Positions 35,638 to 38,377 are shown, numbered from the stretch's first letter. The stretch: 40,147 nt of DNA from Mycobacterium phage prophiGD43A-2 (MW584198.1); one strand, 5' to 3'. Numbers and translations: made by a program. The notes: generated from the letters alone by a model not told the origin.

Positions 35638-35955
35638 CTAGTTCGACGTTTGCTTAACCGAGTAGTTGAACTTGATGTCTTTACCCTCCACTGAGGTAGT
35701 CGTCACCACTACGTCGTAATGGATGCCCTCATCGTCTATCACAGTGCACTTTTGCGTCGCGCCCAACTTGCCGTCCAAAGGCCCTTGGCATTCAACCTTC
35801 TGTAGCTCGATTTTCTGCTTCTCTTTGGCAGCGTCTTTTAGGCCCTGTTGCAGGCCCTCGGTAGAGATTTGGTGCACCGTCTCGAAGTGAGTCACATGGC
35901 AACCCGACAGGGATGCCGCCAGCAATGCGGACCCAATCACTAAGCTAGCCTTCAT
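35638..35955 (-). CDS. Secreted lipoprotein (signal peptide plus lipobox LSGC) at the end of the toxin cassette
   Basis: MKASLVIGSALLAASLSGC.. is a classic Lpp signal with a lipobox. GC is about 50%. Its ATG overlaps the stop of the upstream immunity gene. Confidence 0.6.
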   Translation of the reverse strand: MKASLVIGSALLAASLSGCHVTHFETVHQISTEGLQQGLKDAAKEKQKIELQKVECQGPLDGKLGATQKCTVIDDEGIHYDVVVTTTSVEGKDIKFNYSVKQTSN

Positions 35956-36400
35956 CTTCCACCACTTCCAGTGTCTGTAGGAACGAAACAAACTCGGGCT
36001 TCACCAGATCATACTGGTCATACGGCGCACTGAATAACAGCTCGATTACCAACGACCGATTGTCCGTCTTGCGTACCGCCGAATAGAGACGGTCCCCTCG
36101 TACAAGTATTCCACCCTCAATGAACTCAAGCTCTTGGCCATACTGAGACACCGGCTTGAACGAGATGTACTCAGCTCGTGACACTCTGGCGTTGAGTCGC
36201 ATCGCATCGCCTTGAGCATGCTTCTCTAAGTTCACAGTGGGCGATTCTGCGGTGCGCTCCCGTACGACGATTCGCGGCGAGGGCAGCGTGGGTTCCCGCA
36301 TGAACACCGCTACAGCCTCGGGGTCGCCACCGTCTGCCAGTGGGATGGTTATCCAGCCGCGCGGAGCGTTACCGCTTACCTGGACCCGATACTTCGGCAT
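35945..36400 (-). CDS. Candidate immunity protein, translationally coupled to the toxin
   Basis: 151 aa. Its ATG (36400..36398) lies 1 nt after the toxin TGA (36404..36402). GC is low. No recognisable domain. Confidence 0.55.
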   Translation of the reverse strand: MPKYRVQVSGNAPRGWITIPLADGGDPEAVAVFMREPTLPSPRIVVRERTAESPTVNLEKHAQGDAMRLNARVSRAEYISFKPVSQYGQELEFIEGGILVRGDRLYSAVRKTDNRSLVIELLFSAPYDQYDLVKPEFVSFLQTLEVVEDEG

Positions 36401-36401
36401 G

Positions 36402-37904
36402 TCAGTTGTTGACCCACTGCCAGAGCTTGGCTAGCTCGCCGCCGAATTCCTTGGGATCAACAGTTATTTCGAATCCGGGCTTGGCCCCAATGCCGAGCGC
36501 CACGCCCCAGCTACCGCCGATTTTCCATTTGTGGTCTTCGGTCTCGGCGAATGTCAGGTGTGCGCCAGCTCCCGCGCCAGCCCATTCTTCTACTCCAGCT
36601 TTGGCTTCAAGCCCGTGGCCGTTGTAGTTGAGTTCCTGGCCGGTGTGAACACCGAGCATCGCGCCGCCCTGGAGCTGCGTACCCTTCTCTGCTACCGCTC
36701 CTGCGCCGCCGTACTCGTCAACGCCCGCGTTTCCGAAAATCTTGGCCTCAATTCGGCCCTGGTCGCCGTTTTCCCCCAGGTCCCAATGGATATTTCCCTT
36801 GTTATCGATCAGGTAGGCCCCGGCATGCTCCTTGGCTCCAAGACTGTCCTTCTTCACCTCGGCGTCTGCGCCAGCTCGGTAACTTAGCTGGTCTGATTCG
36901 AGCTTGTAGTCCCCGCCAAGGAAGTGCCCTTCGCGCTCCCAATGGTTTACCTGGTCACCATGTTCGCCAGCGTCGCCCTTCCAGACAGTCGGCCCTTTGC
37001 CGTCACCGATCTTGGTCTGATCCCCGAATGATTTCCCCTTGGTGGTGCCGGTCGGGGTCGTATTCCTACCCTCAGGGGACTTGTCCACACCCTTGCCGGT
37101 CTGGGTGCCGTACTCTTTGTCTTTCTTGAATAACTCCTGCTCAGGGATCGGAATATCCGGCTTGCCCAACTTATCTTTGAGGGGTACGCCGGGCTGATCT
37201 GGCGTCTGCGGTAGACGGCTCAGCGTGTCGGTCATCCCGCCAACACCGGCCGGAGTTGTCGCAGCCGGATCGCCAGACAAGAGCTTTTGAACTTCCGTGG
37301 GGGCGAACGCTTGTGGGTTTGTCGCCGCTACTGCGCTGCGCACAGCTGTATGACCATTCGCGCCGACCGCACTTAGGTTGATCGCGCCCGCGATCTGCGC
37401 CTCGGCGCTATGTATCTTGTCGGCAACGCCCTGTGACGCCGAAAACCAGCTATCTACAGAGCTTTTGAGTTCGCTAGCAGCGGCGGCAATAGTCTTGGTG
37501 TTGGCGTCTGCTTGCTCATCGCTCATGCCATCTGGCGGCGTGTAGGTCACCGTGTAGTCCTGGTTGACCGTGGCGCCGTCAATGCGCCGGATGTTATCTA
37601 CGATGTTGTGCCCATTGGTCAGCGGCGGGACAACCCCGTAGGTGACAGCGGCGGTCACCTCGGACACCAGGCCCTCCACTGTGTCGTGAATAGAAGTCAC
37701 GGCCTTTGCATCTTCGCCCGCTTTGTCCTGGGCGGCGGTGGCCGTCTTGCCCCACCAATCGGTCCCACCGGGCGCGTACACGCCCGATTTGTACTCGGTG
37801 AAGTCAGACACCAGCGACCGCATCTCGGCGCCCCAGCCGGGCACGTGCTCCAAGTAGGAGTTGGGGTCGATCGCCATGAACTCATCTAGCGGGGGAAGAG
37901 GCAT
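36402..37904 (-). CDS. Polymorphic toxin: N-terminal WXG100/ESX-secretion-like helical domain (motif DWWGKTATAAQ), Pro/Thr/Lys-rich linker, Gly-rich C-terminal domain of unknown activity
   Basis: 500 aa. GC is about 56%, against about 66% for the phage. A WxG motif sits at about residue 50, a low-complexity linker at residues 210..300, and a C-terminal 200 aa with repeated G-x-G/beta-like segments. Confidence 0.65.
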   Translation of the reverse strand: MPLPPLDEFMAIDPNSYLEHVPGWGAEMRSLVSDFTEYKSGVYAPGGTDWWGKTATAAQDKAGEDAKAVTSIHDTVEGLVSEVTAAVTYGVVPPLTNGHNIVDNIRRIDGATVNQDYTVTYTPPDGMSDEQADANTKTIAAAASELKSSVDSWFSASQGVADKIHSAEAQIAGAINLSAVGANGHTAVRSAVAATNPQAFAPTEVQKLLSGDPAATTPAGVGGMTDTLSRLPQTPDQPGVPLKDKLGKPDIPIPEQELFKKDKEYGTQTGKGVDKSPEGRNTTPTGTTKGKSFGDQTKIGDGKGPTVWKGDAGEHGDQVNHWEREGHFLGGDYKLESDQLSYRAGADAEVKKDSLGAKEHAGAYLIDNKGNIHWDLGENGDQGRIEAKIFGNAGVDEYGGAGAVAEKGTQLQGGAMLGVHTGQELNYNGHGLEAKAGVEEWAGAGAGAHLTFAETEDHKWKIGGSWGVALGIGAKPGFEITVDPKEFGGELAKLWQWVNN

Positions 37905-37910
37905 CGTCGC

Positions 37911-38216
37911 TCACCCCTGCCGATAGATGCTGGGTGTGTTCTTGAAGGCCGCTTCCAGCTCATTTGAATGCTGGACGAAATCCTGGTGCGCTTCGCTGAT
38001 CAGCTCCCCGATAACCCGTAACCGCCGTGAGGCAACCCGCTGCACGTTGGGGATCGTCTTGGAGGTCATTGACTGGATCGCCACCAGGGCCGGGTCCGCA
38101 CCCTTGGTGGCACTCCCGCCAGCTGAAATCCTGCCGTCAATACGGTCAGCTATCGCGCTGAGCTGCGGACTCAGCTTTCCCAATGCCCCAAGATCGGCCT
38201 TCAGAATGTCATCCAC
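37911..38216 (-). CDS. Small alpha-helical protein (about 101 aa). Candidate WXG100-family/secretion partner of the toxin
   Basis: GTG start with a GGGGAGG RBS 10 nt upstream. Its stop is 6 nt before the toxin start. The track ORF extends to 38375 but the upstream part is Arg-rich and unlikely to be coding. Confidence 0.5.
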   Translation of the reverse strand: MDDILKADLGALGKLSPQLSAIADRIDGRISAGGSATKGADPALVAIQSMTSKTIPNVQRVASRRLRVIGELISEAHQDFVQHSNELEAAFKNTPSIYRQG

Positions 38217-38377
38217 GACCCGTTTGCCTCCCCGCCGATAGCTAACCCGATGGAGACAAGCTACAACGAACGTAGTGGAGCGTGCACGGCTATCCGCGCG
38301 GTAGCCACCCCCGAGCGCTTTGGCCGGCAAGCGGTCCTCGCTGGTCGGGGCCGGGCCGCGCCGACGTGCGCTCACTG

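Follow-up and report, generated by a model that had tools for sequence, protein, structure and literature searches.

A PEST1-class toxin cassette in a Mycobacterium abscessus prophage, with a predicted membrane-active tip and a DUF4333 lipoprotein as candidate immunity partner

Here we analyse a four-gene cassette in a 40,147-nucleotide stretch of Mycobacterium phage prophiGD43A-2 (MW584198.1), hereafter referred to as the window. The cassette is encoded on the minus strand and comprises, in order of transcription, a small helical partner of 101 residues (37911–38216; probable GTG start at 38216, as in annotated homologues, within a maximal open reading frame (ORF) of 154 residues at 37911–38375), a toxin of 500 residues (36402–37904), a protein of 151 residues with a Mog1/PsbP/LpqN fold (35945–36400) and a DUF4333 lipoprotein of 105 residues (35638–35955; ATG at 35955, maximal ORF 35638–35991). 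The four co-oriented ORFs proposed in an initial annotation, which was made from the sequence alone, were confirmed (35638–38375). We identify the cassette as a PEST1-class module (PEST, phage-encoded ESX-secreted toxin) lying in the slot that separates lysis genes from integrase in an approximately 40-kb M. abscessus prophage. Comparison of related cassettes suggests that the lipoprotein, not the 151-residue protein, is the specific immunity partner of the toxin's C-terminal tip.

The toxin ATG comes 6 nucleotides (GCGACG) after the partner TGA, a single nucleotide (C) separates the toxin TGA from the ATG of the 151-residue protein gene, and this gene overlaps the lipoprotein gene by 11 nucleotides (ATGAAGGCTAG), all as initially annotated. 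A GGGGAGG ribosome-binding site lies about 9 nucleotides upstream of the GTG at 38216. The cassette is flanked by lysin A, lysin B and holin genes on one side and by a tyrosine integrase gene on the other. The fall in GC content to 50–56% across 35.6–38.2 kb that had been claimed for the region was overstated: the cassette measures 58.8% (toxin 60.4%, partner 59.5%, 151-residue protein gene 56.6%, lipoprotein gene 52.5%), as compared with 63.8% for positions 1–35600 and 65% for the lysis genes. The dip, of about 2.8 standard deviations, is real, the cassette being approximately the lowest-GC 2.6-kb stretch in the window (mean 63.5%, standard deviation 1.7%).

Cassettes of this class were first described as PT-Imm cassettes (Dedrick et al. 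2021, PMC8092301) and later as PEST (mSystems 2023, PMC10654092). The core of the initial reading, a prophage-borne polymorphic toxin cassette of the ESX or type VII secretion system (T7SS) type as in M. abscessus prophages, was thus right; its expectation of novelty was not, as the system is already published and in GenBank. Along its full extent, region 35400–38500 shares 97.5% DNA identity with Mycobacterium phage prophi89-1 (phiGD89-1), in which genes 60–57 (annotated as WXG motif protein, polymorphic toxin protein, 'lipoprotein LpqN' and hypothetical protein) sit between lysin A, lysin B and holin genes and a tyrosine integrase gene. The closest published instances are these prophi89-1 genes and prophiGD54-2 genes 4–7; their gene order and their position beside the integrase/attachment junction are the same as in the window, and at the system level we found no difference. 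The prophiGD54-2 sister cassette, the tip of which belongs to the same family as that of the window (62% identity), was described with an 'AvrE-like' C-terminus and an 'LpqN-like' Imm (PMC8092301). Our analysis departs from the published description in its account of the components: the 'LpqN lipoprotein' has neither a lipobox nor a signal peptide, the cassette effectively consists of four genes, including a conserved DUF4333 lipoprotein gene, and covariation favours this lipoprotein as the specific immunity partner.

Over its first 25 kb, the window shares 95–96% identity with prophiT50-1 and prophi89-1. The integrase, but not the cassette, is shared by several phages of this backbone, and the cassette is thus a mobile moron in a variable slot. 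A core structural module of the phage was rejected, as the closest backbone relatives, such as prophiT50-1 and prophiGD21-1, lack the cassette and as it is also found in the chromosome, apparently outside prophages. One related module of this kind lies on the chromosome of Mycobacterium/Mycobacteroides sp. CBMA271 (locus L004, 5686–8495), outside any obvious prophage, with dnaE and a SpoU methylase gene on one side and metabolic genes on the other; a more distant one (locus L012, 735–6021) is immediately adjacent to eccE and eccB, which are ESX core genes. A tblastn search of the toxin tip against plasmids gave no matches, and the WXG/LpqN/MspA genes of the pE plasmids (PMC8092301) therefore do not belong to this family.

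Residues 1–225 of the toxin (37230–37904) form a PEST1-type N-terminal secretion/trafficking domain, as defined by tblastn and by a conserved WxG motif. This motif, correctly recognized at the outset, is W50-W51-G52, with W50 and G52 conserved to at least 90% across 39 homologues. The domain (approximately 225 residues) recurs in 32 phage records (tblastn). Its relatives include the PEST1 prototype prophi_GD43-6 gp91 (38% identity, 2e-33), whose cassette is toxic to M. smegmatis when the Imm gene is missing (PMC10654092), and the phage toxins that share it include some with TNT-like (NADase) and Tde-DNase-like tips; in the bacterial proteins P0055-59, the same domain is joined to PF13930 (Endonuclease_NS_2) or PF15648 (Tox-REase-5). 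No match to the LXG domain (Pfam PF04740) was obtained at E ≤ 1, and the resemblance to LXG toxins is functional only. Residues 120–124 (37533–37547, YTPPD), in a loop of the domain, form a Y-x-x-x-D/E-like motif (TYTPPDG) that is mostly kept among homologues as Y-x-x-x-[DEQ], one N-domain type having W in place of Y; it might serve as the ESX secretion motif that is absent from the small partner.

The 101-residue partner belongs to phrog_18870 (E = 2.4e-45). The 'WXG' label initially given to it does not apply: the protein contains no tryptophan and no W-x-G motif, and it did not match Pfam WXG100 (PF06013) at E ≤ 1. Its distant positional equivalents give weak WXG100, EspC or DUF6317 matches, and the best match of its profile among PDB sequences was not significant (E = 0.25). 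Covariation was measured here, as for the other genes of the cassette, as the Mantel r between pairwise identities across 14 loci. The divergence of the partner follows that of the toxin N-domain with r = 0.97, and the two are predicted to pair.

The N-domain is connected by a K/G/T/P-rich linker (residues 226–305, 36990–37229), predicted to be disordered on the basis of its composition and of AlphaFold2 confidence, to a Gly-rich C-terminal domain. The initial annotation had described a low-complexity linker followed by an unassigned Gly-rich domain, and both elements are present: the disordered K/G/T/P-rich stretch spans residues ~236–300, the domain is 19.5% Gly, and searches of Pfam, NCBIfam, PHROGs and PADLOC returned no informative family for it. 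This tip (approximately 200 residues) occurs in only 7 of 50,697 phage records, and an exhaustive HMMER search, covering 1.84 billion representative proteins, placed it in 26 clusters. Within Mycobacteroides/Mycobacterium, it is joined to at least four unrelated N-domain types. Distant relatives, found across Actinobacteria, carry T7SS_signal, WXG100, WXG100_2 or PPE N-termini, and no Pfam domain covers the tip in any of them. One trafficking domain with varied tips, and one tip with varied trafficking domains, are traits of the polymorphic toxin systems of Zhang et al. 2012 (PMC3482391); another is a co-varying immunity gene downstream, with orphan or arrayed copies, a pattern that the lipoprotein gene shows (below). 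Modular shuffling of both halves is demonstrated at the sequence level, which makes the protein a genuine polymorphic toxin by its architecture.

The tip is divided into an allele-variable part (residues 306–441, 36582–36989, predicted strands 1–5), delimited by structure prediction and nucleotide identity, and the conserved core of the family (residues 442–500 plus the stop codon, 36402–36581, predicted strands 6–7 and a C-terminal amphipathic helix), delimited by a conserved motif. Nucleotide identity to sister cassettes is 52–67% over 36582–36989 and 84–100% in the flanks. In distant relatives, the family-wide core motif reads E.WAGAGAEA...DGK..IGG..GAALGLGGK.G.E.TIDP.EV; in the window, the core carries the glycine-zipper-like motifs WAGAGAGAH and GGSWGVALGIGAKPG, followed by the C-terminal amphipathic helix. 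In one distant homologue (P0068), a conserved hairpin unit, GGVRGTAGVEAWAGAGVEADVDFGFQDGKFTVGGKLGAGLGLGG, is duplicated in tandem, which suggests a tip assembled from a beta-hairpin module that can be repeated. A weak Pfam match to Het-s 218-289 (E = 0.0095) came from another distant member.

We predicted the structure of the tip using AlphaFold2 on an alignment of 34 sequences. Residues 236–300 of the linker are disordered in the model (predicted local distance difference test (pLDDT) 27–35). They are followed by seven antiparallel strands of 21–23 residues each (306–482, pLDDT ~70–84) and a helix (484–499). Strands 4–7 each have one hydrophobic face (mean Kyte–Doolittle hydropathy +1.0 to +1.6) and one polar, Gly-rich face, and carry GxxxG-type runs. 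A Foldseek search of the model against the PDB returned nothing significant (best E = 0.011, for OmpA), and the resemblance of the tip to its structural neighbours is thus architectural, not homologous. Using phmmer, the toxin and the 151-residue protein gave only chance matches to PDB sequences. No enzyme family was matched by the toxin (Pfam, NCBIfam, PDB phmmer), and an enzymatic toxin was rejected, there being no match to a catalytic family and the predicted fold being an all-beta meander. A distant resemblance of this tip family to the AvrE family was obtained by Dedrick et al. using HHpred (PMC8092301), and AvrE/DspE proteins are beta-barrel channels (PMC10511319); Pfam AvrE_T3Es (PF11725) did not match the toxin at E ≤ 1. 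From the amphipathic GxxxG strands and the lack of an enzyme match, we infer that the tip is a non-enzymatic, membrane-active and probably oligomerizing beta domain, a reading consistent with the AvrE-like hint.

The 151-residue protein could be confidently assigned to the Mog1/PsbP/LpqN/Eag alpha–beta sandwich fold, with similarity to LpqN, MTC28 and PsbP and with matches that include the type VI secretion (T6SS) Eag chaperones EagT6/PA0094 (11.9) and SciW (10.0). Pfam, NCBIfam, PHROGs and PADLOC gave no informative family for it. The protein has no Cys and no signal peptide, its N-terminus is polar (MPKYRVQVSGNAPRGW) and its ORF cannot be extended upstream; it is therefore cytoplasmic. The 'lipoprotein LpqN' label carried in GenBank by homologues at six loci (L001, L002, L003 and L015–L017) is probably a misannotation and seems to stem from fold or HHpred similarity. 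A homologue of 147–167 residues follows the toxin in every locus examined. Distant Actinobacteria also carry homologues behind the toxin (99.3% and 78% by hhalign), and one of these loci adjoins eccB and eccE; a scan of genome contigs with the alignment of the 151-residue protein returned only two loci. In two metagenome/Logan contigs (L019, 4005–4451; L021, 3815–4258), an intact homologue had been left uncalled by the gene finder of the source, leaving an apparent gap of ~435 nucleotides after the toxin.

A comparison can be drawn with the T6SS Eag chaperones (DUF1795: EagT6/PA0094, 1tu1; SciW, 6xrb; PMC7773334). Both kinds of protein are soluble, cytoplasmic and encoded beside a secreted toxin, and the adjacent toxin has a membrane-inserting segment, which in the window is a prediction. 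However, the clients of Eag chaperones are helical transmembrane domains at the N-terminus of prePAAR effectors, and the chaperone genes usually lie upstream, whereas the 151-residue protein is encoded downstream of the toxin and its presumed client is the C-terminal beta domain.

The last gene of the cassette encodes a lipoprotein of Pfam family PF14230 (DUF4333; 3.7e-8, 33.9 bits against a cutoff of 27) and of phrog_32913 (2.3e-60). Its lipobox, LSGC, and two further Cys residues are conserved in the alignment, consistent with an extracytoplasmic protein. A search of PDB sequences with the lipoprotein profile found nothing significant. The protein also partly matches NCBIfam NF052486 'anti-apoptotic protein', a mycobacterial equivalog (E = 2.2e-10, 40.6 bits against a 250-bit cutoff), probably reflecting no more than the shared DUF4333 domain. 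The lipoprotein had initially been taken for an extra gene, but one to three DUF4333 genes follow the 151-residue protein gene in 15 of 15 examined loci of the mycobacterial branch, and among phages the lipoprotein is found in exactly the same 7 of 50,697 records as the tip. Several loci carry two or three tandem copies, as in M. chelonae S00154 (L013), where three DUF4333 genes lie in tandem at 4446–5463. In prophiGD16-1, gene 52 (L002, 1743–2066) is an orphan DUF4333 lipoprotein gene; the mature part of its product is 99% identical to that of the window lipoprotein, and the gene follows another toxin allele, which comes with a lipoprotein of its own. These arrangements look like immunity-gene arrays.

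Across the 14 loci, the divergence of the lipoprotein follows that of the variable tip (residues ~306–441) with r = 0.86 (p = 0.0002). For the 151-residue protein, r is 0.47 with the variable tip and 0.57 with the conserved tail. Among locus pairs with tips at least 85% identical, the lipoproteins are at least 88% identical in six of six and the 151-residue proteins are 60–85% identical; in the ten pairs in which the 151-residue proteins are at least 85% identical, tip identity ranges from 54 to 89%. The 151-residue protein and the tip come apart in individual pairs. Between prophiT49-2 and prophiGD16-1, the tips are 97% and the lipoproteins 100% identical, but the 151-residue proteins only 61%; between the window and prophiT49-2, the 151-residue proteins are 99% identical, but the tips only 66%. 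Sliding nucleotide identity locates these transitions within the cassette. Between prophiT49-2 and prophiGD16-1, it is 88–99% in the tip and 93–94% at the start of the lipoprotein gene, and 57–64% in the 151-residue protein gene that lies between them. Between the window and prophiT49-2, it is 93–98% in the 151-residue protein gene, 52–78% in the tip and 64–72% in the lipoprotein gene. prophiGD16-1 matches the window (91–100%) up to ~37350 and again from the lipoprotein gene of the window onward; it has acquired a different tip, 151-residue protein gene and lipoprotein gene, and has kept the window-type lipoprotein gene as an orphan.

Thus, the lipoprotein remains coupled to the tip across an exchanged 151-residue protein gene, and orphans and arrays consist of lipoprotein genes only; both observations point to the lipoprotein as the allele-specific immunity determinant. 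These comparisons, which are of sequences throughout, suggest that the lipoprotein is the specific immunity partner of the tip and, on that reading, the 151-residue protein would pair generically with the conserved tip core. Of the 'coupled immunity gene' that the initial annotation had seen in the 151-residue protein gene, the coupling stands, and specific immunity would be better placed with the lipoprotein.

Further features lie on either side of the cassette. Directly 3′ of the lipoprotein gene, a GC-rich hairpin (35570–35605) consists of an A-run, CCGCCCCAC...GTGGGGCGG and a T-run. Its predicted RNA fold has a free energy of −31.1 kcal/mol (z = −3.5), and none of 200 shuffled sequences folds as well. 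A simple terminator scan did not report this hairpin, which is a probable bidirectional terminator between the cassette and the convergent gene on the lysis side. Upstream of the cassette, the intergenic region from the integrase stop codon to the partner start (38217–38421) is the presumed promoter region; a simple promoter scan found no sigma-70-like site. Dedrick et al. report that a prophage promoter drives the lysogenic expression of such cassettes (PMC8092301). At the right end of prophi89-1 (L001, 7689–7778), attP is annotated inside the immunity repressor gene, an arrangement of integration-dependent immunity; the right end of the window (38422–40147), with the integrase gene (38422–39432) and small ORFs, probably has the same organization.

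These sequence relationships can be assembled into a model of how the cassette might work, in which every functional step is conjectural and to which, as a whole, we attach about as much belief as doubt. In it, a PEST1-class module would deliver a membrane-inserting beta tip, with a cytoplasmic holdase in the 151-residue protein and with immunity provided in the envelope by the DUF4333 lipoprotein. In the lysogen, the four genes would be transcribed as one translationally coupled operon. The 101-residue partner and the WxG N-domain would together form a PE/PPE-like secretion signal for an ESX system of the host, as modelled for PEST1 (PMC10654092). The cargo would be non-enzymatic, a Gly/Ala-rich domain of seven long amphipathic beta-strands and a C-terminal helix. 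In the cytoplasm of the producer, the 151-residue PsbP/LpqN/Eag-fold protein would bind the conserved C-terminal core, keep the tip soluble and harmless, and be stripped off at secretion. Once exported, the tip would insert into a membrane and oligomerize into a beta-barrel-like pore. The DUF4333 lipoprotein, anchored outside the plasma membrane, would recognize the allele-variable strands (~306–441) and shield the lysogen, together with its kin, against toxin that comes from outside. Overall, the lysogen would benefit from kin-selective killing or membrane damage.

The closest functional precedent for this arrangement is provided by the Staphylococcus aureus T7SSb toxin EsxX, an LXG glycine-zipper toxin, with its ExiAB and ExiCD proteins (PMC12744356), and by the related TelE/TipE (PMC10434224), the parallels on the side of the window being inferred. 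EsxX requires ExiAB, which is soluble, in the cytoplasm and ExiCD, which is membrane-bound, on the outside; orphan exiCD genes also occur (PMC12744356). Common to EsxX and, putatively, the window toxin are T7SS export, a modular build with small helical partners and a non-enzymatic, Gly-rich, membrane-active cargo. Both would also combine a soluble cytoplasmic neutralizer with a separate envelope protector, which occurs in orphan form as well. However, we found no sequence or fold relationship between the two systems. An LXG domain and a short, helical glycine zipper make up EsxX, whereas the window toxin has a PE/PPE-like N-domain and a predicted beta-meander tip of ~195 residues; ExiAB has a GyrI-like fold and the 151-residue protein a PsbP/LpqN fold; ExiCD are polytopic membrane proteins and the window encodes a small lipoprotein; and EsxX is exported by a T7SSb, as opposed to the ESX (T7SSa) of a diderm mycobacterium. 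A second comparison is with M. tuberculosis CpnT and EsxE–EsxF: CpnT is a modular toxin that depends on ESX and has its small Esx partners encoded upstream, an arrangement that the window may share. Both CpnT and AvrE/DspE (PMC10511319) are secreted, beta-rich membrane channels, a likeness that may extend to the tip. In CpnT, however, it is the N-domain that forms the channel, and the toxic part is the TNT NADase at the C-terminus. CpnT resembles PEST3, not PEST1 (PMC10654092).

Several findings weigh against the model. The covariation rests on 14 related loci with a common recombination history, which are not independent events, and the three most distant actinobacterial loci (L010, L011 and L012) have no DUF4333 gene, so that the lipoprotein is not universally required. 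The small partner contains neither a WXG nor a YxxxD/E motif. The structure prediction is of moderate confidence (mean pLDDT 60, predicted template modelling score 0.46, from 34 fairly similar sequences), strands 1–3 are polar on both faces and the net charge of the domain is −14. For this toxin family, toxicity, secretion, the formation of pores and all binding steps are predictions: toxicity and Imm-dependent rescue have been shown only for two other PEST systems, prophiGD43A-6 and prophiGD17-1 (PMC10654092).

The published reading, in which the 151-residue LpqN-like protein is the cognate immunity protein, in line with other PT-Imm and PEST cassettes and as assigned in PMC8092301, and the DUF4333 lipoprotein an accessory or an unrelated lysogenic-conversion gene, fits several of our observations. 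The 151-residue protein gene occupies the canonical Imm position, 1 nucleotide past the toxin stop codon, its homologue is present behind the tip even in the distant Actinobacteria that have no DUF4333 gene, and its divergence correlates positively with that of the tip (r = 0.47–0.57), as might be the case for an immunity protein of broad specificity. We nonetheless regard this reading as doubtful. Near-identical tips with 61% identical 151-residue proteins, and near-identical 151-residue proteins with 66% identical tips, are atypical of a specific pair; orphan and tandem copies are always lipoprotein genes and never the 151-residue protein gene; and a cytoplasmic protein would not protect against a membrane-active toxin that arrives from outside.

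Still other readings place the function of the cassette elsewhere, and the authors of the PEST study left pathogenicity, competition and defence all open (PMC10654092). The toxin might not be antibacterial but an ESX-exported channel or host-directed effector, with the 151-residue protein as its chaperone and the lipoprotein as an assembly or regulatory factor; the beta domain would then reside either in the mycomembrane of the producer, where it would act as a porin or a conduit for export in the way of PE/PPE channels or the CpnT N-domain, or in phagosomal membranes of the host, in the manner of AvrE. The structural neighbours of the tip are indeed porins and transporters, not known toxins, and an AvrE-like resemblance has been reported (PMC8092301) to a family whose members AvrE/DspE form channels in host membranes (PMC10511319); the Eag chaperones matched by the fold of the 151-residue protein (PMC7773334) would likewise suit such a role. 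We consider it unlikely, because the tip fills the toxin slot of a polymorphic toxin scaffold common to nucleases and NADases, and because a hypervariable tip with co-varying and orphan lipoproteins is the signature of a toxin–immunity arms race and not of a housekeeping channel. Far less probable still is a role in anti-phage defence or superinfection exclusion, for example through an abortive-infection pore and an exclusion lipoprotein. Surface lipoproteins can exclude phages, and a prophage moron adjoining the integrase is in a typical place for defence genes; prophage-mediated viral defence is also among the possibilities raised by the PEST authors (PMC10654092). However, PADLOC models matched none of the four proteins (the only match, to ZorA at E = 0.084, is meaningless), a secretion domain and a secretion partner would be superfluous for an intracellular abortive-infection effector, and related modules lie on chromosomes, apparently outside prophages, and beside ESX core genes.

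A broader proposal, which we advance tentatively, is that the tip founds a so far undescribed family of T7SS-delivered pore-forming toxins, of beta-barrel type and spread across Actinobacteria, with protection in two compartments: the 151-residue holdase acting on the core and, in mycobacteria, the DUF4333 lipoprotein acting in an allele-specific manner. M. abscessus is a hard-to-treat pathogen, and its prophages hold over a thousand such cassettes. The system itself is not new, and the value of this analysis lies in refinement: a testable reassignment of roles and a structural hypothesis for the toxin tip. If true, the immunity role would be reassigned in this branch of PEST systems, and DUF4333 and cytoplasmic LpqN-like proteins would gain their first functions. 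If confirmed, the two-compartment immunity of S. aureus EsxX would be extended to mycobacterial ESX toxins.

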